This document shows, in pieces, positions 3,685-48,647 of a DNA stretch of 64,000 nucleotides. Under the pieces are notes generated by a model. The model ran no database searches. It saw nothing but the letters and a program-made list of their open reading frames with translations, and was not told where the DNA came from. The stretch is from sequence record MW394390.1; one strand, 5' to 3'. This stretch comes from Klebsiella phage vB_KpM_FBKp34. Position numbers and translations under genes: made by a program. The stretch's first letter is position 1. Every line of letters begins with the position of its first letter.

Positions 3685-5484
3685 GTGGACTATAAACATA
3701 TAAAATGGTATGGTACTGAGGTTGATCTAACAAAACAAGGTCATACAGGATGCCCTAGATGTATTTCAAAAGGCAGGGACAAAAATAAAGATAATTTAAT
3801 GGTATATGGGGAAAACTCTGAGGGCTATCATACAGGAGCTTTTTGTTTCTCTTGTCAGTTAAGTATACCAGATGAAATTTATATGATGGAAAATGATGAA
3901 GATTATGAAGAGGAGGATATATTGGGTAGTGAGTTTAACTCAGAAATTCATGAAAAACTTAAAGAAACCACTGGCCTTAAATCCAATGGTTATAGAGGGA
4001 TTAGAGATGAAATCTCAAAATTCTTCGGTGTAAGATACAAATATGATGAAACAGATGGTAAAACAGTAAAAGCTGTACTTTATCCTACAACTACTTCTTA
4101 TGAGATATCTGGTTATAAACAAAGAACACACCCCAAAAATTTCAAGTCGCCCGGACCAATCGGTGAAACTGGAAAAGAGTGTGACTTATTTGGGCAGTTT
4201 CGCTTTAAAACCTTCAGTAACACTTTGTTAATAGTTGGAGGGGAACATGATCAGTTAGCTGCATATCAAATGCTGGTTGATGCTCAGAAAAATAAGAATT
4301 ATGATCCAATTGCGGTAGTTAGTGGCACAACTGGTGAATCTTCTGTTTACAAACAGCTTCAAAACAATTATGATTTCATTAATCAGTTTAAGAAGATTGT
4401 CATCTGTATGGATGCAGATAAAGCAGGTGCTGAAGCCACTGAACGAATTCATGAAGTTTTACCGAAAGGTAAAGTCTTTGTGATGAAGATGCGTTATAAA
4501 GATCCTAATGAATACATTTATAATAAAGAAACAGGGAAATTAGTCCACAAAGAACAAGAGTTCGTCAATGATTTCTGGGCTGCTAAACCTTATACTCCAC
4601 ATGGTGTAAAAAGTGCAGCAGACGGCTTGGATGAGATTGAAGAAGAGCTAAGAAAGCCACGCATTACCCTTCCTGAATACATGCATGAAATGCAAGTAAT
4701 GATGGGTGGTGGTATGATTCAGGGTAGGATTGCAAACATTATTGCAGACACTTCTAGTGGTAAATCCACTCATGTTAACCGTATGGTTTACCATTGGATT
4801 TTCAACAGTCCGGTTACTCCAACTATTGTTAGTCTTGAAGCAACTGCTGCACAGTATATGTTGGAAATGTTATCGATTCATTTAGAAGTAAACTTACTCT
4901 GGAAAATGGCTCCAGAAGAAATTATCACGTGGTTGAAGACAGAAGAAGGACAAAGGGTTTATAGGGAGTTAGCTTATAAAGAAGATGGTCAACCACGTTT
5001 CTACATTCTTGATGAACGGGCTGGTAGTATTAAAGATTTGGAAGCAGAGTTAGAAATGCTTTATAGAAAACATGACAGCAAGCTTTTTGTCATTGATGTT
5101 CTTTCAGATTTACTTCGTGGTTCTAGTGAAGAACATGCAGAAGACCATATGAACTTTCAAAGAAATATGGCTAAGAATGGTGTTACCATTGTTAATGTTC
5201 TACACACTCGTAAACCACCACAAAACTCTGAAGGTAAGCCAAGAAAAGTCACTGAGTATGATGCATTGGGTACTGGGAGTTTTGTGCAATCAGCAGCATA
5301 TAATATCGTATTAAATAGAGATAAACTTTCAGAGGATTCTATTGAGAAAAATACCACTGAAGTAGATTTACCAAAATGCCGTGGTGGTAAGACAGGGGCT
5401 GCGGGTAAATGGTATTATGAATTTGACAAAAGCAAATGTCATGATCTAAATGACTACTTCTCGGATAAACCAGCACGGAGTTAA
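3685..5484 (+). CDS. DNA primase-helicase (zinc ribbon, Toprim and DnaB-like ATPase)
   Basis: GTG start behind a GAGG SD. CPRC...CFSC zinc ribbon. Toprim motifs (VGGEHDQ, CMDADKAG). Walker A ADTSSGKST. Confidence 0.8.
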   Translation: MDYKHIKWYGTEVDLTKQGHTGCPRCISKGRDKNKDNLMVYGENSEGYHTGAFCFSCQLSIPDEIYMMENDEDYEEEDILGSEFNSEIHEKLKETTGLKSNGYRGIRDEISKFFGVRYKYDETDGKTVKAVLYPTTTSYEISGYKQRTHPKNFKSPGPIGETGKECDLFGQFRFKTFSNTLLIVGGEHDQLAAYQMLVDAQKNKNYDPIAVVSGTTGESSVYKQLQNNYDFINQFKKIVICMDADKAGAEATERIHEVLPKGKVFVMKMRYKDPNEYIYNKETGKLVHKEQEFVNDFWAAKPYTPHGVKSAADGLDEIEEELRKPRITLPEYMHEMQVMMGGGMIQGRIANIIADTSSGKSTHVNRMVYHWIFNSPVTPTIVSLEATAAQYMLEMLSIHLEVNLLWKMAPEEIITWLKTEEGQRVYRELAYKEDGQPRFYILDERAGSIKDLEAELEMLYRKHDSKLFVIDVLSDLLRGSSEEHAEDHMNFQRNMAKNGVTIVNVLHTRKPPQNSEGKPRKVTEYDALGTGSFVQSAAYNIVLNRDKLSEDSIEKNTTEVDLPKCRGGKTGAAGKWYYEFDKSKCHDLNDYFSDKPARS

Positions 5485-20421: not shown

Positions 20422-22365
20422 CTATTCCCCTAAAATACTTTGGTTAATTTGGAAGTTCTGATCATCAAATGCCCACTCAATTCTTTGGTCAGCACGTGCA
20501 TCAATCAGGTTGCCAAATTCTTCAGAAGGTTCTACTTGAACTACTACAGGCGCTGGTGTAATATTTAAATTATACTGTGGAAGATTAAATGGATTGTTAC
20601 CGCCAAAATTATTTTGATTAGCATACATAGCACTAGGTGCATTAGAACCACTTGAGAACCAGTTATCCCAAAGGTATGTTAACTGATCAGATAGACTCAT
20701 GGAAGTAGGATCAATGACAGCCAAAGGTAAATCACTTTGAGTGATACCTAAAGAAGCCTGGAAGTTCTTTCTCCAATCTAAGAGGCTGTTAATAGCCCCA
20801 CCAAGTTTAATAAATGAACCAGTTAAATCACCTGTGACTTTACCTAAAGCTTGAATAACAGGAACGAAACCTGACAATTCTTTTGAAAGATTGTTGCTAT
20901 TTATACCTGCATCTTTCAAGCCTTGAACAAACGCAGCACCAAATTGACCTTCCATAAAATCTGCTGTTTTACTAAAGGTTGCAGACATATCAGAAAGATC
21001 TTTCAAATTATCTCGTTGAACTTTGGTATAAAGCAAACCTGCGTCTGTTAGTTCATTAAGAGTTGCGACAACATTTTCACCATCTCTACCAACAGATTTA
21101 GCAATATAAGAGAAGTCATTTATTGCTTCTGCTAACGCAGTAAATTCAGAATCTGTAAGTTTTGCACTTTTACGTAAACCTTCAAGTAAGACTGCCAGTT
21201 CAACTGGGCCTTTTACGCTTCTTAGTGTTGCCAGTGCACCTTCACGGCTAAAACCACCACGTTCAGTCATGATCTTTAACCAGTCAGCCATTTCACCACC
21301 ACCACTAAAAGACCAATCCCCAGTTTTCTTATTTTGTTTCCATTCACCAAGGCTTAACTGACCAATTTTATCCTGCACGTCTTTAGAAATATCAGAAATT
21401 TTCTCGAAAGATAGATCGAATCCTGTTGATCTTAGGGCTGCAAGTTGCAAAGCTTGGGTTTCTTCAGGCATGATACCCATAGAACTAACACGACTTAACC
21501 CTCTAGATTGCAATACGGCGCTCTGGAGAGCCATGACAGCACGAGAGTAGCCCATGTAACCTAATGCACCTGCACCTATTAATCCAGCCCCTGCAATAGC
21601 ACCACCGAAGCCTAGACCACCTGATCCACCTTTTCTTAAGTCACCAATCCTCTCTCTGAGAGTCATATGCTCTTTTGAAAGATCTCTTGTGCTTCTTAAA
21701 AGTTGTCTTGTGCTTTCTCTGTATTGGTCTAGTTCTATTTTACCAGAACGGTATCTCCTGTTTAAATTTTCCAGTTCTCTTGAGAATTGTCTAGCTTCTT
21801 TAGCACCAAGATTTAATCTACTCACTTCAAAAGCTAATTGATTACTTCTTAAGCCAGATTTACTATCTCGTTTTTCTTGATTTCTTCTTGCAAGCAAAGC
21901 TTCTCTTGCGATCCTTTCACGAATTTTATCTACGTTTTTTTGCTGATCAAGCATATCCCTAGTATATCTTGCCATTTCAGCATTTTGTCTTTTTACCCTT
22001 TCGTTATCTTCTGCAAAAGCTTTTTTAAAAACGTTAGCACTATCTCTTGCAGATTTCCCAGGTGTCTTATTTACACCAAGTATTTTATTATATGAGTTTT
22101 GAACATTTTTTGCCGCTTGTTTACTTCTAAGCTTTGCAACATCTTCCATAGCTTTTATATGAGCATCCATAACTTGGGTTGCTGTTTTTTTAGCATTTCT
22201 TACGGTTGCTCTCGCAGCTACAGGAGATGCTATGGCATTAGAAGCAGTTTTAGAAAACTCTTGTTGAAGCTTTTTCATGTCATTTCTGACAGCTTTCAAA
22301 CTCTTGGTGTCTGTTTTATAGACAATCCTGTTGACAAGTGTTGCGGCTTCTACCTTAGTAGCCAT
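20422..22365 (-). CDS. tail tape measure protein
   Basis: 647 aa, strongly alpha-helical and charged, with a glycine-rich central segment. Lies downstream of the chaperone pair. Confidence 0.7.
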   Translation of the reverse strand: MATKVEAATLVNRIVYKTDTKSLKAVRNDMKKLQQEFSKTASNAIASPVAARATVRNAKKTATQVMDAHIKAMEDVAKLRSKQAAKNVQNSYNKILGVNKTPGKSARDSANVFKKAFAEDNERVKRQNAEMARYTRDMLDQQKNVDKIRERIAREALLARRNQEKRDSKSGLRSNQLAFEVSRLNLGAKEARQFSRELENLNRRYRSGKIELDQYRESTRQLLRSTRDLSKEHMTLRERIGDLRKGGSGGLGFGGAIAGAGLIGAGALGYMGYSRAVMALQSAVLQSRGLSRVSSMGIMPEETQALQLAALRSTGFDLSFEKISDISKDVQDKIGQLSLGEWKQNKKTGDWSFSGGGEMADWLKIMTERGGFSREGALATLRSVKGPVELAVLLEGLRKSAKLTDSEFTALAEAINDFSYIAKSVGRDGENVVATLNELTDAGLLYTKVQRDNLKDLSDMSATFSKTADFMEGQFGAAFVQGLKDAGINSNNLSKELSGFVPVIQALGKVTGDLTGSFIKLGGAINSLLDWRKNFQASLGITQSDLPLAVIDPTSMSLSDQLTYLWDNWFSSGSNAPSAMYANQNNFGGNNPFNLPQYNLNITPAPVVVQVEPSEEFGNLIDARADQRIEWAFDDQNFQINQSILGE

Positions 22366-26114: not shown

Positions 26115-26600
26115 TCAAGACTTCTCATTAATCTTATATTCTGCGCTATTAAGTAATTCAGAAGTTTCTACAAGAATTGTGGAACTTCCTTTTTTCGCAA
26201 CAGTCGATGGTGCTAATGGAGTAAATCTTTGAGACATAATACTTCTTTGTATTGTTCTTACACCAGTCACACCTACTGGCTTGAATGAAGAATTAGCATC
26301 TTTCCTTTTGAAGAGATAATCTATCATTCCCTTTCTCATTGCAGAAATATCTTTATCATTTAATAGTTTTACACTATAAAAAACAAAAGGTCTTGCTGGA
26401 ATATTTCTTTTAACACTACCATATTCTTGAATAAGGGCTAAAGAACCAATAGGTAAACCAGAAGCATCATGCGTTTTGTCATCATAATAACCGTACTCTA
26501 CAGATACTTGATCTAACCTATAAGTTCTTTCTTCAAGTTGGTCAAAAAAAGATGTATCCCATTTACTGTCAATTTTCAAAGACATTATCTTCTTCTCCAA
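26115..26600 (-). CDS. hypothetical structural protein
   Basis: ORF. Confidence 0.4.
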   Translation of the reverse strand: MEKKIMSLKIDSKWDTSFFDQLEERTYRLDQVSVEYGYYDDKTHDASGLPIGSLALIQEYGSVKRNIPARPFVFYSVKLLNDKDISAMRKGMIDYLFKRKDANSSFKPVGVTGVRTIQRSIMSQRFTPLAPSTVAKKGSSTILVETSELLNSAEYKINEKS

Positions 26601-37025: not shown

Positions 37026-37299
37026 ATTAAACCTATGCTAAAATATAATTATTTAAACAACTAAAGGGACATTTTGAAAAAGTCTTATTTATCTAAATCA
37101 CACTCTAAAACTTTTAGTGTCACACATATTATTTTTGTTTCTAGATATAGAGAAATATATTCAATCTTAAGAAAGACCTGATTAACACTTAGCTCACTAA
37201 TCCCACACCTAAAGTGAGTGGGCTTATCGTTCGCAATTTGGTAATAGATTGAATAGTCTGTATCGTTCAATCGTTAGTTATGACGCTATATGCATATCA

Positions 37300-38700
37300 T
37301 CAGGCTATTTGACATCCTCCCCATCCTAAAGGATGGGGATTCCTAATTCATCGAGGTTTCTAATGAAACCTCTCCAAAGGCTTAAATTTCCGTGTGTCCC
37401 ACGGTATTTATTTCTATATAACTATAATATATTAAATTCTTTTATGCAGCAAGAGCTTTACAATTAAAAATTTCTAAACCTCTTTTATGAATATTTAAAG
37501 CAGCATTAATGTCTCGGTCATGGTCTGTTTTACAAGAAGGACACACCCAATGACGAACATTAAGTTTCAATTCCTCAAGAACATGACCACAACATGAACA
37601 AGTTTTAGACGAGGGATAGAATTGTTCTATCTTCACAATGCTACGTCCAAACCAGGATGCTTTATACTCAAGTTGCCTTACAAACTCACCCCAAGATGCA
37701 TCAGCAATATGTTTTGCCAATTTTCTATTTTTAATCATATTTTTAACTTTCAAAGTTTCAGTAGAAATTATTTGGTAAGTTTTTACTAAATTAGATGTTG
37801 CTTTATGCAATGCATCACGGCGAGAATCACTAACTTTAGCATGTGTTTTAGCAACTTTCAAACGCATTTTATTATAATTGCTTCCACCTTTTTTCATCCG
37901 ACTAAGTTTTCTCTGCAAACGTGCGAGACGTTTAGCATATTTCTTTGTAAACTTGCCATTTTTACCTTTAAGTCCATCTGCTGTAATATAAAGGTCTTTT
38001 AAACCAAGATCAATGCCTGTTGTCTTACTCGATATTGGCAGTTCTTCAATTTCAGTTTCACACAAACAAGACACAAAATATCTACCAGATGCATCTTTAC
38101 TGATAGTAATTGACGAAGGGTGACTTGGTAATTCACCATAACTCCATTTAACATCCAGCGAGACTTTCATTGATTTGGCAATGAAAAGTTGACCATTAAT
38201 GTATTTAAAAGCATTCTTCGTGAGATTAAATGAGTAACTATTATCATAACGGCTTTTGAACTTAGGAAATCTAGCTCTTCCAGAGAAAAAGTTGCTATAA
38301 GCTTTTTCTTGGTTTCTCAGTTCTTGTTGCAGTGCTACCACTGAAACTTCGTTAAGCCACTCATATTCTTTTTTAACTTTAGTTAACTCTCTCGATGCTT
38401 CGGCAAAGTTAATCTTATTTTTATCTTTTTCATAAGCCTCTTTTCTCCAAGCTAATATATGGTTATAGATAAAACGACAAGAACCAAATGTCTTAGCAAG
38501 AAGGATTTTTTGTTCTTGTGTTGGATAAAAACGCATTTTATAAGCTTTTAAAATAATCTTTTTCATTTGATCCCTTTCTAACTATCGTTCTCAGTTTGGT
38601 CAGAATTCACAAAGTGATCTAAATCATATTTAATAAATCATAAAATTGACATCCTCCTCACCCTAAAGATTGTGGAGTTTCTCCTTCATAGAACCTTATA
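37300..38700 (-). mobile_element. IS200/IS605-family tnpB-only element (IS1341-like) with subterminal hairpins
   Basis: The tnpB ORF is flanked by direct repeats TTGACATCCTCCYCAYCCTAAAGRAT at 37309-37336 and 38646-38670. Hairpins CCCCATCC taaa GGATGGGG and GAGGTTTC taat GAAACCTC lie just 3' of tnpB. Confidence 0.45.
37442..38566 (-). CDS. tnpB: TnpB (IS605 OrfB, RuvC-like RNA-guided nuclease)
   Basis: N-terminal RFYPTQEQ...FGSCRFIYN. RuvC-I motif [10 protein letters not shown]-terminal zinc ribbon CSCCGH...CPSCK. Confidence 0.75.
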
Positions 38701-41346: not shown

Positions 41347-41421
41347 TGGAGGGTAGTAGTGGAATCTAACCACTCTAATACTGTTTTGCAGACAGATACA
41401 TGAACACTCTGACAACTACCC
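41347..41421 (-). tRNA. tRNA-Cys (GCA)
   Basis: Acceptor GGGTAGT/ACTACCC. Anticodon loop CUGCAAA. T arm AGTGG/TTAGATT/CCACT. The D arm is weak. Confidence 0.5.
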
Positions 41422-42312: not shown

Positions 42313-42350
42313 TGGTGTGGGAAGATGGAGTCGAACCAGCGAAGACGTAT
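42313..42350 (-). pseudogene. orphan tRNA 3' half (T arm and acceptor 3' strand plus CCA)
   Basis: GCTGG TTCGACT CCATC TTCCCAC A CCA with no matching 5' half. Confidence 0.3.
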
Positions 42351-42431
42351 GTCGGGAGTTTTACTATTCTCCAGTGTATTTGCTGTATAACTACATCGGC
42401 TAATTTAATTATCAGAAGCTATCTTTTCTAT

Positions 42432-42506
42432 ACTTTCGCTCTACCAGGCTGAGCTATTCCCCGTCAGTTGTTCGGGGAAGCAGGATTTGAACCTACGACC
42501 AAAAGT
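42432..42506 (-). ncRNA. matched tRNA halves in permuted order (3' half upstream of 5' half)
   Basis: 5' half CGGGGAA TA GCTC AGCCTGGTA GAGC G AAAGU. 3' half ACUUU UGGUC GUAGG UUCAAAU CCUGC UUCCCCG A. Acceptor pairs 7/7 and anticodon stem 5/5. An 8-nt linker joins them. Confidence 0.35.
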
Positions 42507-42749
42507 TCCCATTAGATTTTATTTGCTGTAAAGCTTCTTTGATAAAATTGTCGGCAGAAGAATTTATTTTCTATGCATGAAATTTTAAAATTGCTGTATT
42601 TCTTCTTGCCAAGATTTATTTATAAAAGATTCAGAAGATATTCTTTTCGCTACATTTCAAGTGTAATGTTGTTTTATATTTGCTGTAAATCTTCAAGAAC
42701 CTTTTATAGATAAATCTTTGTTTCTAAACTATGTATTTACTTTAGCATA

Positions 42750-45567: not shown

Positions 45568-47253
45568 TTAAAGTTGTGACGCTGCTCGTTCACGAATCGT
45601 TGTCAGGTCTTCATCGACAATCAGCTTGCCGTTGTAGAACACACGACGCAACTCGTTATCGTCAGACTGTACATCTTCAAGCTGACAATTGTCAACCAGT
45701 TTCAGTTCGCCATTCTCATCACGAACAACCTTCAGGAAACCTTTTGCAGATTTCTTACCGAGGTCAGTCTTCGGTTCTTTGACAACCATGATCTGCTGAC
45801 CATCAATCACAGCGCCAGTTGCCTTAACAGCCATACCCAGTGAATCGCGGGTTGTGTACTGCGTGGTGAAAGAACCGACGCCGTAAACAATGTTGCTGGA
45901 TGCAAAACCTTTTTCTTTCAAACGTTCAAAGATGTCTTTTGCACGAGCAACAGTGATGGAGTCACCGTAAATCAGACCAACATGACTATCAAGAACTTTG
46001 TAACCTTTAGTGTTAAATTCACCACCGAAGATTTCCCACAGACACTGGATTGCACCTTTAACTTCATGCTCTTCAAGACCTGAAGGTTGGAAGTCGAAGT
46101 AGGCATTATTCTCATCGTCAACAAGAATCCGGTAGTATTTACCTTCAATCTTGGCAACTTCTGAATTTGAATCTTCCTGTAGTGCTGAGTGTGCATCAGA
46201 CCAGTCATCAAACTCACCGAGGCTACGATAGCCAGCAATGATATGCTCTGGAATACCAGAATCAGGACGGAATACTACACGACCATCACGGGCCATGATG
46301 TCCTGTTTCAGGATCGCTGCTGCTTTGGTGATAATCGCCCAAAAGTCATAACTGTCTGCCACGTAGGAAACAAAACCTTTAGGGAAAATTTCCGTAATGT
46401 AACGACGCAGGAACTCAACCTCAGCCAAGAAACGCGCTTCATCCAGAGTCAATTCAGGGTGTTCACCTTGTAAACGACCAACGATGAAACCGATGTTCGT
46501 TGTTGCAACAGAGTGTTCAGATGCAGGAATAGAACCAGCAACGAACTTGCCTTTCATGTTGTAATAACGATTTGCATACAGAATTGCTGGGATAGTATCA
46601 GTACCCATTGAGTTGATCAGTTGACCAAACTCACTCTGTGCTGCGTCGTGCGTCCCAGATTCACCACGATATGCGAAACAGTGGTTCTGGAAAGGCACAT
46701 GCAAGTTGTTATCGCAAGTCTCAGCAGCCCATTTTTCAGACAGCTTGCGATACTGCCAGAACGTAGTTGCAGTCGTAATAGTTTTCCAAGTTTCTGCGGA
46801 GATCACACTTTCCAGGAAGTTAGGCAACCAGTAAAAATCAGGATGCGTGTTCTGAATGGTGAACAGCGGAACCTGTACCGGAGACAGAGTACCTTCAGGA
46901 ATCGAACGGATTTCCAGTGGCAGATAACCAAGGTCATGCAGCTTTTCAAATCCCCAAGTTTCAACCATGTTAGGACCAATACTCAGATCACAAATTTCTT
47001 TGTACTGTTCAATAGCTTCTTCTTTACTTTTCTTGAAGAAGTTTTCGTTAAACATGTCGATAAGGAACCACTTAATGAATCCCTGAAGACCTGCCATCAT
47101 AACACGCTGGTCGTTATCAGCGAAGTGAATGAAGTGCTTCGCATTTCGTGGTGTCATGTTGTCCTGAACAATCTCAGAGCGTTTATCGTACATAGAAATG
47201 TGGCTTGGCTTATACCAATCCGCAAACATGATAGGGTTTTCTTTATACAGCAT
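45568..47253 (-). CDS. nadV: nicotinamide phosphoribosyltransferase (NAMPT/NadV)
   Basis: 561 aa. VFRPDSGIP and ADSYDFWAII match the NAMPT motifs (human VIRPDSGDP and SDSYD). Adjacent to prs. Confidence 0.8.
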   Translation of the reverse strand: MLYKENPIMFADWYKPSHISMYDKRSEIVQDNMTPRNAKHFIHFADNDQRVMMAGLQGFIKWFLIDMFNENFFKKSKEEAIEQYKEICDLSIGPNMVETWGFEKLHDLGYLPLEIRSIPEGTLSPVQVPLFTIQNTHPDFYWLPNFLESVISAETWKTITTATTFWQYRKLSEKWAAETCDNNLHVPFQNHCFAYRGESGTHDAAQSEFGQLINSMGTDTIPAILYANRYYNMKGKFVAGSIPASEHSVATTNIGFIVGRLQGEHPELTLDEARFLAEVEFLRRYITEIFPKGFVSYVADSYDFWAIITKAAAILKQDIMARDGRVVFRPDSGIPEHIIAGYRSLGEFDDWSDAHSALQEDSNSEVAKIEGKYYRILVDDENNAYFDFQPSGLEEHEVKGAIQCLWEIFGGEFNTKGYKVLDSHVGLIYGDSITVARAKDIFERLKEKGFASSNIVYGVGSFTTQYTTRDSLGMAVKATGAVIDGQQIMVVKEPKTDLGKKSAKGFLKVVRDENGELKLVDNCQLEDVQSDDNELRRVFYNGKLIVDEDLTTIRERAASQL

Positions 47254-47841
47254 CTTTTGTGTCTCCTTTGTGGTTTATTCTATAAAATATGCAATTTCTA
47301 TGAGAGTGTCTTTTACCTTTTACAACAGCACTAACTAAGCGATAGTCAAAGCCATAATCTCTCATCTCTTCATTGCCATTCATAATAGCAACTATTTCAT
47401 TTGTGTCAAGAGTTATTGCAAATATTGTGAAAGATAATCTTGTTGCCCTCCTCCCACTTGGCATATCCTTCAACCCATTGGCAAGTGCGTGAATTTGGTT
47501 AGTTTTGTTATCAACCCACTCAAGGTTTTCAACATTATTGTTTTGCTTGTTACCATCCTTGTGGTTGACTTGAGGAAGTCTTGTAGGATTAGGTATAAAT
47601 GCTTCTGCAACTACACGATGAACCTTGAGACTGACTTTCTTGCCACTTTTATCCTTCGTCCTAAGACGTAAATAACCACAATTATCTTCTTGAAATTTTA
47701 AAATCTTGCCTTTTACTTTACATAAGGTTCCTGTATCAGACCGTGCATAAACACGGTCAACAGAATAGATATTACCTTCGTTATCTACTTCAAGATATCC
47801 TTCAAAATCCTGAACGGATTTCTTTGAGAATTCCATGTTCA
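47243..47841 (-). CDS. HNH homing endonuclease (NUMOD4-HNH type)
   Basis: FEGYLEVDNEGNIYSV (NUMOD4). VNHKDGNKQNNNVENLEWV (HNH). Start reassigned to MNMEFS, which has a GGAGA SD. Overlaps the ends of both nadV and prs. Confidence 0.7.
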
Positions 47842-48647
47842 TTTCTCCCTGAAATATTTTCCATCCATGGATGGTAAGTGTAAACCTCATCAACAAACCC
47901 TTCGAGGATATCTATCCCTTTTGAGAAGATACCATGTGTAACGTATAAAATTACACGTTTTGCACCTTTTTGTTTAAGAACCTCCCCTAATTTAAGAAAG
48001 GTGAACGCACCATCGGCGATGTCATCTACGATGACACATTCTTTACCAGCCACATCCCCAAAAACCTCTGTCCCGAAAATTTCTCCTGTCGTTACATCAC
48101 GAACCTTACCAGCCTCCACCAGTGGAAGGCGCATACGATCTGCAACCTTTTGTGCTTTCTTCCTTGCACCAGCATCTGGTGCTACAATAATAACGTCTCC
48201 ACCATAAAGGTGGTCATGGAATTCTGAAATCAGTATATCTTGACCACGAACATGAACATTGTTTAGTAATGCTGTTGAAACATCACTATGTGGATCATCT
48301 ACCACAACTTTATCAAAACCAAGCGAGTTTACAATGTTTGCAAATACCTTAATGGCAAGAGCTTCACCAGGCTGCATCACACGATCCTGCCGAGCATAGG
48401 GGATGTAAGGCAGATTTAGAGTAAACTCTGCATGAACATCAAGATTCTCAAGCCGAGAAACTGCATCCACGAGTAAAGCCAATACCATAATATCCGCAGA
48501 ATTTTTAATCTTTGCTGTAATGTCAACAAAACCAATACTACCTTTCGGAGCATGGTTCAAGTCAATCTTCACTTGCTCCTCACCACCTTTGAACGTAAAG
48601 TGGTCTACAGGAACAATAAGTTTGTTCAGTCTAAGTTCAAGACTCAT
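47802..48647 (-). CDS. prs: ribose-phosphate pyrophosphokinase (PRPP synthetase)
   Basis: 281 aa. PRPP-binding loop CVIVDDIADGAFT. NLDVHAEF region. Confidence 0.8.
   Translation of the reverse strand: MSLELRLNKLIVPVDHFTFKGGEEQVKIDLNHAPKGSIGFVDITAKIKNSADIMVLALLVDAVSRLENLDVHAEFTLNLPYIPYARQDRVMQPGEALAIKVFANIVNSLGFDKVVVDDPHSDVSTALLNNVHVRGQDILISEFHDHLYGGDVIIVAPDAGARKKAQKVADRMRLPLVEAGKVRDVTTGEIFGTEVFGDVAGKECVIVDDIADGAFTFLKLGEVLKQKGAKRVILYVTHGIFSKGIDILEGFVDEVYTYHPWMENISGRNEHGILKEIRSGF

Follow-up and report, generated by a model that had tools for sequence, protein, structure and literature searches.

A permuted tRNA-like module beside a Ro60-like protein gene of a Klebsiella phage: candidate effector part of a Y-RNA-like partner RNA

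Introduction

How is one to understand a tRNA-like sequence whose two halves pair perfectly and stand in the wrong order? Such an element lies on the minus strand of the DNA analysed here, a stretch of 64,000 nucleotides (nt) of Klebsiella phage vB_KpM_FBKp34 (MW394390.1; 'the window' below means this whole stretch). The phage belongs to the Stephanstirmvirinae, and its sole close relative in GenBank is Klebsiella phage KP13-16 (97.9% identity). A first, sequence-only reading had described the element as a permuted tRNA, with an orphan 3' half further on, and had listed several explanations: a split or permuted tRNA gene, a rearrangement scar, tRNA-like decoys, or Y-RNA-like partners for the adjacent protein with a vWA domain. 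The last of these is favoured, by the Ro60 fold predicted for that protein, by a match to the Rfam YrlA family and by the co-occurrence of gene and RNA across phage lineages. With a probability of about 0.78, what looks like a permuted tRNA serves as effector module in a Y-RNA-like RNA, itself one of a tandem set of partners for the Ro60-like protein encoded upstream.

An anticodon-less cloverleaf in permuted order

Read 5' to 3', the module (42506-42432) presents the 3' strand of a closing stem, a variable loop, a T arm, a loop-capped acceptor, a D arm and the 5' strand of the closing stem. The 3' half starts with ACUUU (42506-42502) and then UGGUC; the T arm follows (GUAGG-UUCAAAU-CCUGC, 42496-42480). 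The 7-bp acceptor is formed by the 3' strand UUCCCCG (42479-42473) and the 5' strand CGGGGAA (42463-42457), and is capped by the 9-nt loop AACAACUGA (42472-42464), made up of a discriminator-like A and the 8 nt that the sequence-only reading had placed between the halves. After UA come the D arm, GCUC-AGCCUGGUA-GAGC (42454-42438), then G and AAAGU (42436-42432). Read directly on the minus strand, the pairing first claimed holds (acceptor 7/7, closing stem 5/5), as does the circularly permuted order of 3' half, 9-nt loop and matching 5' half.

The module is not a tRNA gene, because it has no anticodon loop. ARAGORN reports 17 tRNAs in the window and none between 42307 and 42786; at the module it calls neither a tRNA nor a permuted tmRNA, and neither ARAGORN nor reading of the sequence gives a colinear cloverleaf with a 7-nt anticodon loop at 42313-42538. 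Nor do the two halves reconstitute a complete tRNA: no anticodon loop is ever enclosed between them, and the closing stem continues at both ends into a conserved non-tRNA sequence, the handle described below. With the permuted tRNA genes of Cyanidioschyzon merolae and with permuted tmRNA the module shares a T arm and 3' acceptor strand that precede the 5' acceptor strand; in sister units only, the likeness extends to a CCA upstream of the 5' acceptor strand. It differs from both in having no anticodon loop, tag reading frame or pseudoknots, in escaping detection by ARAGORN and the Rfam tmRNA_permuted model, and in opening at the anticodon-stem end into a protein-type handle. A two-piece permuted tmRNA was considered and rejected: ARAGORN makes no such call, and the Rfam tmRNA matches are only T-loop fragments of 6.6 bits.

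The structure is far beyond chance. A strict structural scan of 620 kb found 13 acceptor-capped permuted cloverleaves, against 0.2 in shuffles. Under a covariance model of permuted modules (model R2), the window module scores 67.9 bits (E about 1e-18) and ordinary junctions of neighbouring tRNAs in the window at most 25.8 bits; such tRNA-tRNA junctions are a source of false positives flagged by Chen et al. (PMC4201824). Under the same model, true modules score 38-73 bits and tRNA junctions at most 33; this gap, with the 7/7 pairing of the acceptor, rules out a junction artefact. Modules in the 38-73-bit range occur in the window, in KP13-16, in E. coli phage Bas63 and in a series of other loci, given here by L numbers (L002-L006, L008, L009, L011, L014, L021, L065, L088-L092).

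Across 11 modules of different lineages, 86% of cells are paired, as against 58% in shuffles and 38-48% with slid partners. Double-sided changes affect 18 of the 21 pairs, including all 7 of the capped acceptor, and covariation is found in all four helices; L089, for example, has two compensatory acceptor pairs (UUCCCCG/CGGGGAA to UCUCCCG/CGGGAGA). The five loci L088-L092, at 90-62% protein identity, all present the gene, two plain units, the permuted module or modules and a tRNA array, and module and handle together are kept in relatives from 97% to about 40% protein identity. The complete genome of KP13-16 and four independent metagenomic relatives all keep the window's own element, which rules out an assembly artefact.

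A handle common to many RNAs

The module is the interior of a predicted RNA of ~125 nt, R3 (42538-42414), closed by a 7-bp stem beside the motif UUACAGCAA. The stem pairs AGAAGCU (42538-42532) with AGCUUCU (42420-42414), and UUA-CAGCAA (42531-42523) stands directly after its 5' strand; further parts are an inner stem AUCU/AGAU, A-rich linkers and a conserved G at 42413. This frame is common to every lineage with permuted modules. Two plain units, R1 and R2, lie upstream of it, directly after the gene for the 479-amino-acid (aa) neighbouring protein. R1 has the stem GAAGAU (42694-42689)/AUCUUC (42639-42634), UUA-CAGCAA (42688-42680), an A-rich interior and a 3' U followed by the conserved G. 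R2 has the stem GGCA-AGAAGAA (42610-42600)/UUCUUCU-GCC (42562-42553), AUA-CAGCAA (42599-42591) and an RNAfold z-score of -2.3. A covariance model of the handle (named R1 like the unit, and separate from module model R2) has these three units as its top three matches in the 64 kb, with unit R2 first (26.6 bits) and unit R1, which lay outside the seed set, third (18.9 bits). The fourth match, at 26338-26412 on the minus strand (18.3 bits, E 0.1), is probably due to chance, because it falls inside an open reading frame (ORF) of 161 aa (26115-26600).

The handle was compared across 80 metagenomic loci that encode relatives of the protein at 39-52% identity. Every permuted module among them follows one pattern: a strand of 6-8 nt, (Y)UUA-CAGCAA, an A-rich linker, the module, a second A-rich linker and the complementary strand. 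The stem changes from lineage to lineage (AGAAGCU/AGCUUCU, AGACCG/CGGUCU, AAGAUCAU/AUGAUCUU, AGGAUGC/GCAUCCU, AGGAUUC/GAAUCCU). Interiors differ as well, with full modules, reduced forms (acceptor stem 3-bp or absent in L010, L011 and L016), a second module and forms of 200-250 nt; the majority of units have no tRNA part and measure just 50-70 nt.

One test was independent of the selection of units: all CAGCAA sites were taken, in fixed register, and a perfect 7-bp stem was required. Same-strand sites within 1.5 kb of the gene are stem-positive in 70 of 149 cases; the figures fall to 9 of 120 for the remaining same-strand sites and to 2 of 175 for sites on the other strand (Fisher p 6e-28). 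By this test 43 of the 80 loci are positive, and many units begin 28-45 nt past the stop codon. In a set of 78 handles, 44 distinct stem 7-mers stand beside the invariant motif, and positions that played no part in selection are conserved: G6, its partner C and U13 in 75/78 each, and the G after the 3' strand in 78/78. The covariation of its stem and its strand specificity indicate that the handle is an RNA feature. A reading of the handle motif as a sigma-70 promoter, with TTTACA as the -35 element, was rejected: the sites at 42689-42660 and 42545-42516 reach only 9/12 matches, and such matches are not enriched.

Cultured phages outside the training set carry matches to the handle model beside the gene as well: Bacillus phage PJN02 (E 1.6e-5), Staphylococcus phage S-CoN_Ph12 (1.4e-4), Listeria phage SH3-3 (2.9e-4 and 4.4e-3), Vibrio phage ValKK3 (3.8e-4) and Mycobacterium phage Faith1 (8.8e-3 and 0.086). 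In E. coli phage Bas63 (MZ501086), two handle units (82068-82143 and 82235-82301) and a single permuted module (82823-82891) lie in unannotated gaps and not among the annotated tRNAs.

The handle also occurs in the reverse arrangement, inside a body in tRNA order (42223-42110). This RNA has an ordinary acceptor, D arm and T arm and a CCA end; in place of the anticodon region it carries a handle capped by a loop, AACUUCU-UAG-AGAAGUU (42189-42173), and UUACAGCAU (42172-42164), after which comes a remnant Asp-like hairpin (42158-42143). The connectivity is that of R3 in the other circular permutation, ending at the acceptor stem, and by this connectivity the long tRNA belongs to the same class as R3. 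It is identical in KP13-16 and L088. L021, of an unrelated lineage, has two independent tRNA-order examples (about 4895-5150, plus strand) with a different handle stem (GCAAACU-GAYA-AGUUUGU-AUUCAGCAY), followed by a permuted unit. Since both arrangements are found in the window and in L021, the two circular permutations of tRNA body plus handle coexist.

Other interiors were seen within the same frame. A second conserved one, ...GAACCUUUCUGGAGGGGAAAGCAAAAACUCGCC..., is found in L008 (1265-1373), L009 (149-280), L011 (2737-2836) and L012 (2276-2370), and may be a different class of effector, analogous to YrlB. Units of 120-250 nt with the stem AGAGUGR.../...CCUUACAYCACUCU and the same motif occur in L008 (628-833), L010 (686-804), L012 (1840-2064), L013 (2409-2659), L014 (973-1184) and L016 (2066-2318). 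In two genomes an annotated coding sequence (CDS) covers an RNA element: in Bas63 (MZ501086; positions of locus L097), the opposite-strand bas63_0137 (20749-21023) covers the permuted module at 20824-20892, and in a Staphylococcus phage (L085) the 'hypothetical protein' CoNPh12_CDS0026 (4019-4108) covers the handle unit at 4028-4099. Both small CDSs are probably misannotations.

The neighbouring Ro60-like protein

R3 lies 248 nt downstream of the protein gene, on the same strand. Pfam assigns the protein DUF2828 and DUF7788, with a weak match to VWA_CoxE and none to TROVE. Its AlphaFold2 model (pLDDT 83.5, pTM 0.82) was compared with the PDB by Foldseek: the top 11 matches are all full-length Ro60, Rsr or TROVE structures (E 1e-10 to 1e-8, about 500-580 columns, TM 0.44-0.63 over the full length), those of Xenopus Ro, D. 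radiodurans Rsr and the Ro60 of Thermus phage phiLo; the next matches are isolated vWA domains only, at E about 1e-3. The MIDAS residues D284, S286, S288, T359 and D391 are invariant in 26 homologues. The full-length matches to the Ro60 fold, with these invariant residues, make the neighbour, on its modelled structure, a divergent Ro60-like ring protein.

The family is large: it occurs in about 710 records out of 50,697 from phages, and clustering its proteins at 90% identity gives more than 6,500 clusters. The best matches, which are those that the protein searches list, are all from phages; DUF2828 has also been reported in mimivirus-like proteins. The literature found on DUF2828, UCP015417 and PF11443 holds nothing functional. 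The window protein is 52% identical to its orthologue gp130 of Bas63 (E 7e-166), described in a preprint as Ro60-like and needed to overcome the Ppl defence. As to its RNAs, the authors of that work guess only that 'some tRNA genes' are Y RNAs.

Comparison with YrlA and with phage Ro60 systems

YrlA is a bacterial Y RNA that mimics tRNA, with a T arm, an acceptor-like stem-loop and a D arm closed off by a stem (PMC4201824). The Rfam YrlA model (RF02553) matches 42412-42519 over its full length (model 1-114; 39.6 bits, E 6e-6 in 12 kb), with all four module helices paired and the model's second helix deleted in the alignment; L065 matches the model too. The likeness has several sides: the order of T arm, acceptor-like stem-loop and D arm, with the ends joined by a stem; the position, on the same strand and within a few hundred bases of the gene for a protein with the predicted Ro60 fold (the yardstick is about 4 kb from a Ro60 orthologue, a status uncertain for this protein, which is not recognisable as TROVE); the presence of several different RNAs per locus, comparable to YrlA plus YrlB; and a 7-bp acceptor stem like that of M. 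smegmatis YrlA, an RNA that RNase P cleaves and that gains CCA (PMC4201824).

There are differences too. The Rsr-binding helix of bacterial Y RNAs carries the conserved GNCGAAN0-1G (PMC4201824); the phage RNA has a stem and UUACAGCAA in place of the GNCGAA helix. The phage protein is of the DUF2828/DUF7788 family, with no TROVE recognition in Pfam or PDB sequence searches; the phage has plain units that lack a tRNA part; and the tRNA-order permutation is present as well. In its proposed workings the locus is like Ro60/YrlA, but three things keep it outside that family: the Rfam score, the GNCGAA motif and the recognition of TROVE.

Canonical Ro60 proteins with Y RNAs of the CGAA type are already known in some phages (PMC4201824, PMC12135203). 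Phage phiLo (PMC12135203), mycobacteriophages, CcrColossus and phage G (Chen 2014) resemble the present case in having a phage Ro60-fold protein with adjacent small RNAs, and in a proposed role of subverting host RNA metabolism or defence; the phiLo Ro60 with PNPase is a precedent for a partner in RNA decay (PMC12135203). These differ in having a recognisable TROVE and RNAs with a stem-bulge-stem CGAA site. No description of RNAs with the CAGCAA handle, of their link to DUF2828 or of the two topologies was found in the literature, the coverage of which was incomplete, so that absence is not proven.

Proposed mechanism and points against it

The observed anatomy, conservation, covariation and gene linkage suggest the following course of expression, binding, processing and function, with the fold of the protein taken from a model. 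The constant handle (a closing stem of 6-8 bp, (Y)UUA-CAGCAA after its 5' strand, A-rich linkers, and G after its 3' strand) would be where the Ro60-like ring docks. The partner would be specified by the interior, which is no more than a short loop in R1 and R2 but in R3 a tRNA body that lacks an anticodon and has a loop-capped acceptor. If YrlA is a guide, host tRNA enzymes would recognise the tRNA body. The acceptor stem of R3, at 7 bp and with a discriminator-like A, makes this RNA a likely substrate of RNase P; because sister units in KP13-16 and L021 encode A-CCA inside the capping loop, cleavage and 3' maturation may yield a nicked tRNA mimic. During infection the Ro60-like particle would engage host tRNA-handling or RNA-decay factors, or act as a decoy of tRNA.

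Several points weigh against this account. The homology with Ro60 rests on predicted structure, because sequence searches fail: Pfam, phmmer and a profile search of PDB sequences all gave no match to TROVE. The YrlA match, at 39.6 bits, is below the gathering score of 69 and depends on the tRNA-like part, and reading of 42538-42414 did not find the Rsr-binding motif GNCGAA. All 7 stem pairs of the handle set vary on both sides, but the stems for these pair counts were chosen for perfect pairing, and their 100% pairing is not evidence. About one third of the 80 loci have no handle under strict criteria, and the tRNA-like module is an optional part, because just about a dozen of them carry it. 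The link to the Ppl defence comes from a preprint on a protein that is 52% identical. A sigma-70-like site upstream of the units, which sits inside a hairpin at 42774-42748, would be compatible with a promoter for the RNA array, nothing more; it is weak evidence, because sites of this kind show no enrichment against shuffles (10 found, 8.1 expected).

The orphan 3' half and a deletion

The second element of the first reading was confirmed as GCUGG-UUCGACU-CCAUC-UUCCCAC-A-CCA (42340-42313). It has two parents. A further unit, R4, supplied the left part, and a tRNA-Tyr supplied the right part (42330-42313) from its 3' end, with the switch of parent inside the shared TGGTTCGA (42338-42331). R4 retains a stem strand (GCC..GUAGUU), AUA-CAGCAA (42388-42380) and, from a second permuted module, the long variable arm and a closing strand, ACUCC. 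In the window phage it has lost its 3' partner sequences through the deletion; the unit is complete in KP13-16 (L001, 4201-4112) and in L088 (5380-5459). The complete R4 of KP13-16 runs ACUCC, long variable arm, T arm, C-UUCCUCC-A-CCA, loop, GGAGGAA, D arm, GGAGU.

Alignment with KP13-16 falls into two blocks, of which 42800-42311 corresponds to L001 4642-4152 and 42338-42101 to L001 3238-3001; they overlap by 28 nt, and the right one starts inside the tRNA-Tyr of KP13-16. Relatives are longer here by ~0.93 kb, with the second permuted unit and tRNA-Thr, Gln and Tyr. The deletion in the window is derived, because L088 also has the undeleted arrangement, with these three tRNAs. Recombination in the shared T-loop sequence removed tRNA-Thr and tRNA-Gln, the greater part of tRNA-Tyr, a third unit and the remainder of the second permuted one, and the orphan 3' half, judged by these alignments, is a non-functional deletion junction. 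The 'rearrangement scar' once proposed fits this element and not the permuted module, which relatives conserve: synteny with KP13-16 and L088 explains the orphan by their complete second permuted unit and intact tRNA-Tyr, and the permuted module is intact in both.

The stretch deleted from the window holds, in KP13-16 (L001, about 3678-3600, minus strand), an unannotated tRNA-like sequence, GGGGUCG...AAGGG-UUCAAUU-CCCUU-CGACUCC-A-CCA. It has a 7-bp acceptor stem and a T arm; the D and anticodon regions are aberrant.

Alternative explanations

One alternative locates the function in the transcript itself: the units would be cis-acting punctuation for processing or regulation (nuclease entry site, attenuator or stabiliser), and the tRNA-like modules would recruit RNase P. 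tRNA-like punctuation is a known RNA processing device; units are interleaved with tRNAs in L002 and Bas63, and in many loci they start the short distance after the stop codon given above. This is the rival that survives best, and it is improbable. Several lineages have their units upstream of the gene or without a tRNA array nearby (Faith1, ValKK3, PJN02); the units are linked to the Ro60-like gene, not to tRNAs; and a single-stranded motif of 9 nt that does not vary, next to a stem that covaries, typifies a site bound by a specific protein.

A second perspective takes the elements for inert debris, the pseudogenes and recombination scars of a fast-evolving tRNA array. The array certainly rearranges, as the loss through T-loop recombination and the differing tRNA content of relatives attest, and the orphan 3' half and the truncated R4 really are debris. 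Extended to the permuted module, the explanation is very unlikely: module and handle persist across the whole range of protein identity from 97% to about 40%, with compensatory changes in every helix, and the handle is strand-specific, gene-proximal and recurrent in phages of three bacterial phyla.

Hardly more or less credible is a small mobile or recombinogenic element of tRNA regions, with the linkage to the vWA gene the result of hitch-hiking. Multiple copies per genome, the capped handle inside tRNA-like genes (42223-42110; L021) and nearby homing endonuclease and IS605-family genes would suit it. The handle, however, has no terminal repeats or target duplications; copies in the same genome differ in stem sequence yet stay paired; across phyla the handle keeps its strand and its position with respect to a single gene; and covariation would not maintain the fold of a tRNA body carried by a mobile element.

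Weakest of all is the reading as a true tRNA gene, circularly permuted or split, whose transcript would be rearranged or trans-joined into a decoding tRNA as in Cyanidioschyzon merolae or Nanoarchaeum. In its favour, the 3' half does stand upstream of the 5' half that matches it, acceptor and closing stem pair perfectly, and sister units do encode CCA after the acceptor 3' strand. Against it, an anticodon loop is lacking throughout, what would be the anticodon stem leads into a handle conserved across lineages, ARAGORN reports nothing, the reduced versions in L010, L011 and L016 cannot be tRNAs, and the splicing endonuclease pathway required for permuted tRNA genes is not known from bacteria.

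A possible relation to Dictyostelium Class I RNAs

With the units read as partner RNAs of the Ro60-like protein, the handle invites one further comparison. The Class I RNAs of Dictyostelium are about 60 nt long, start with AAG, end with CUGU and have their ends joined by a covarying 6-bp stem (PMC7919456). An 11-nt motif adjoins the 5' strand, with C6, C9, A10 and A11 invariant (PMC7919456); the literal pattern is GTTGRC-CTTACAGCAA...GTCAAC-TG (PMC5054030). They have been described as unique to Dictyostelia. The plain phage units, at about 50-70 nt, have a covarying end stem of 6-7 bp and a motif of the CCUUACAGCAA type in the same register, directly after the 5' strand; in the window units the 11-nt motif reads, in order, UUUACAGCAA, AAUACAGCAA and UUUACAGCAA, with CAGCAA in fixed register. 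They share the A-A-G start and C-U-G end (the phage termini being predicted), a variable interior and many copies per genome.

Of 4,227 Rfam families, Class I (RF01414) is the only one that matches the plain units, and it aligns end to end. The scores are 25.2 bits for R1, 23.6 for R2 and 28.9 for L040 (4446-4506, E 1e-3), and 17-29 for phage units generally, below the gathering score of 41.5. The model fails the E 0.1 threshold in a 65-kb search and reaches it only in short stretches, so that Rfam support is modest, and the case depends on the match of feature with feature, not on Rfam. Other differences are that the phage units adjoin a Ro60-like gene, the only named Dictyostelium partner being the RRM protein Rnp1A; that some of them hold large modules; and that the upstream DUSE promoter is a eukaryotic element, not relevant in a phage. 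As sequences go, the handle matches the published hallmarks of Class I feature by feature. That the phage handle RNAs and the Class I RNAs form one class, in which a stem with the CCUUACAGCAA handle would dock a DUF2828-type Ro60 paralogue, is a tentative proposal that we hold to be somewhat doubtful.

Features of the locus and its surroundings

Table 1. Elements at the locus, with the basis for each (positions in the window)
Feature	Start	End	Strand	Basis or remark
479-aa Ro60-like protein gene	42786	44225	-	helical ring and C-terminal vWA domain; conserved DxSxS MIDAS motif
sigma-70-like site TTGACA-N18-TAAAGT with TG	42739	42768	-	between the stop codon of the gene and the first RNA unit
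R1, plain handle RNA	42628	42699	-	handle model; Rfam Dicty_Class_I_RNA; kept in KP13-16
R2, plain handle RNA	42551	42610	-	handle model; RNAfold; Rfam Dicty_Class_I_RNA
R3, handle RNA with tRNA-like module	42414	42538	-	minimum-free-energy fold gives exactly this nesting (RNAfold)
permuted, anticodon-less tRNA-like module	42432	42506	-	circularly permuted cloverleaf; the 'permuted tRNA' of the sequence-only reading
R4 5' part, truncated	42341	42400	-	aligns with KP13-16 L001 4242-4180
'orphan 3' half'	42313	42340	-	chimeric T arm, acceptor 3' strand and ACCA; two-parent alignment
handle RNA in tRNA order	42110	42223	-	Rfam tRNA 47.7 bits with 51-nt insertion; missed by ARAGORN

Elsewhere in the window, a sequence between tRNA-Pro and tRNA-Met (41350-41421, minus strand) matches the Rfam tRNA model at 43.9 bits and is not called by ARAGORN. 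Between two tRNA blocks lies an IS605-family OrfB/TnpB gene with a Cas12f-like TNB domain (37442-38566, minus strand). Just downstream of it is a weak match to the Rfam HgcC family (37296-37374, minus strand; 30.2 bits, E 8e-4), at the position expected of a TnpB guide RNA. An HNH/NUMOD4 homing-endonuclease gene (47243-47896, minus strand), flanked by the genes for PRPP synthetase and NAPRTase, seems to have been inserted recently, because KP13-16 has only a 153-nt ORF there.

Implications

Candidate partner RNAs can now be assigned to a very common and unnamed family of phage proteins. Because gp130 of Bas63 has a published counter-defence phenotype, a Ro60-like phage ribonucleoprotein is directly testable in E. 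coli. The design of Ro60 and its Y RNAs, a constant handle with an exchangeable effector, would extend to a second family that sequence does not recognise, with a different handle, and within that design tRNA mimics would occur in two circular permutations. The analysis also points to systematic misannotation: RNAs of this kind fall into seemingly 'empty' gaps or are covered by very small hypothetical ORFs, and one is taken for a tRNA with an insert.

The match between the handle and Class I yields a specific biochemical hypothesis for an orphan class of RNA. If the two do form one class, the Class I RNAs, whose molecular function has been elusive for 20 years, would serve a Ro60-like ring as partners of the Y-RNA kind; phages, eukaryotes and possibly giant viruses would have the system in common; and the phage units with a tRNA body would show how such RNAs acquire effector modules.

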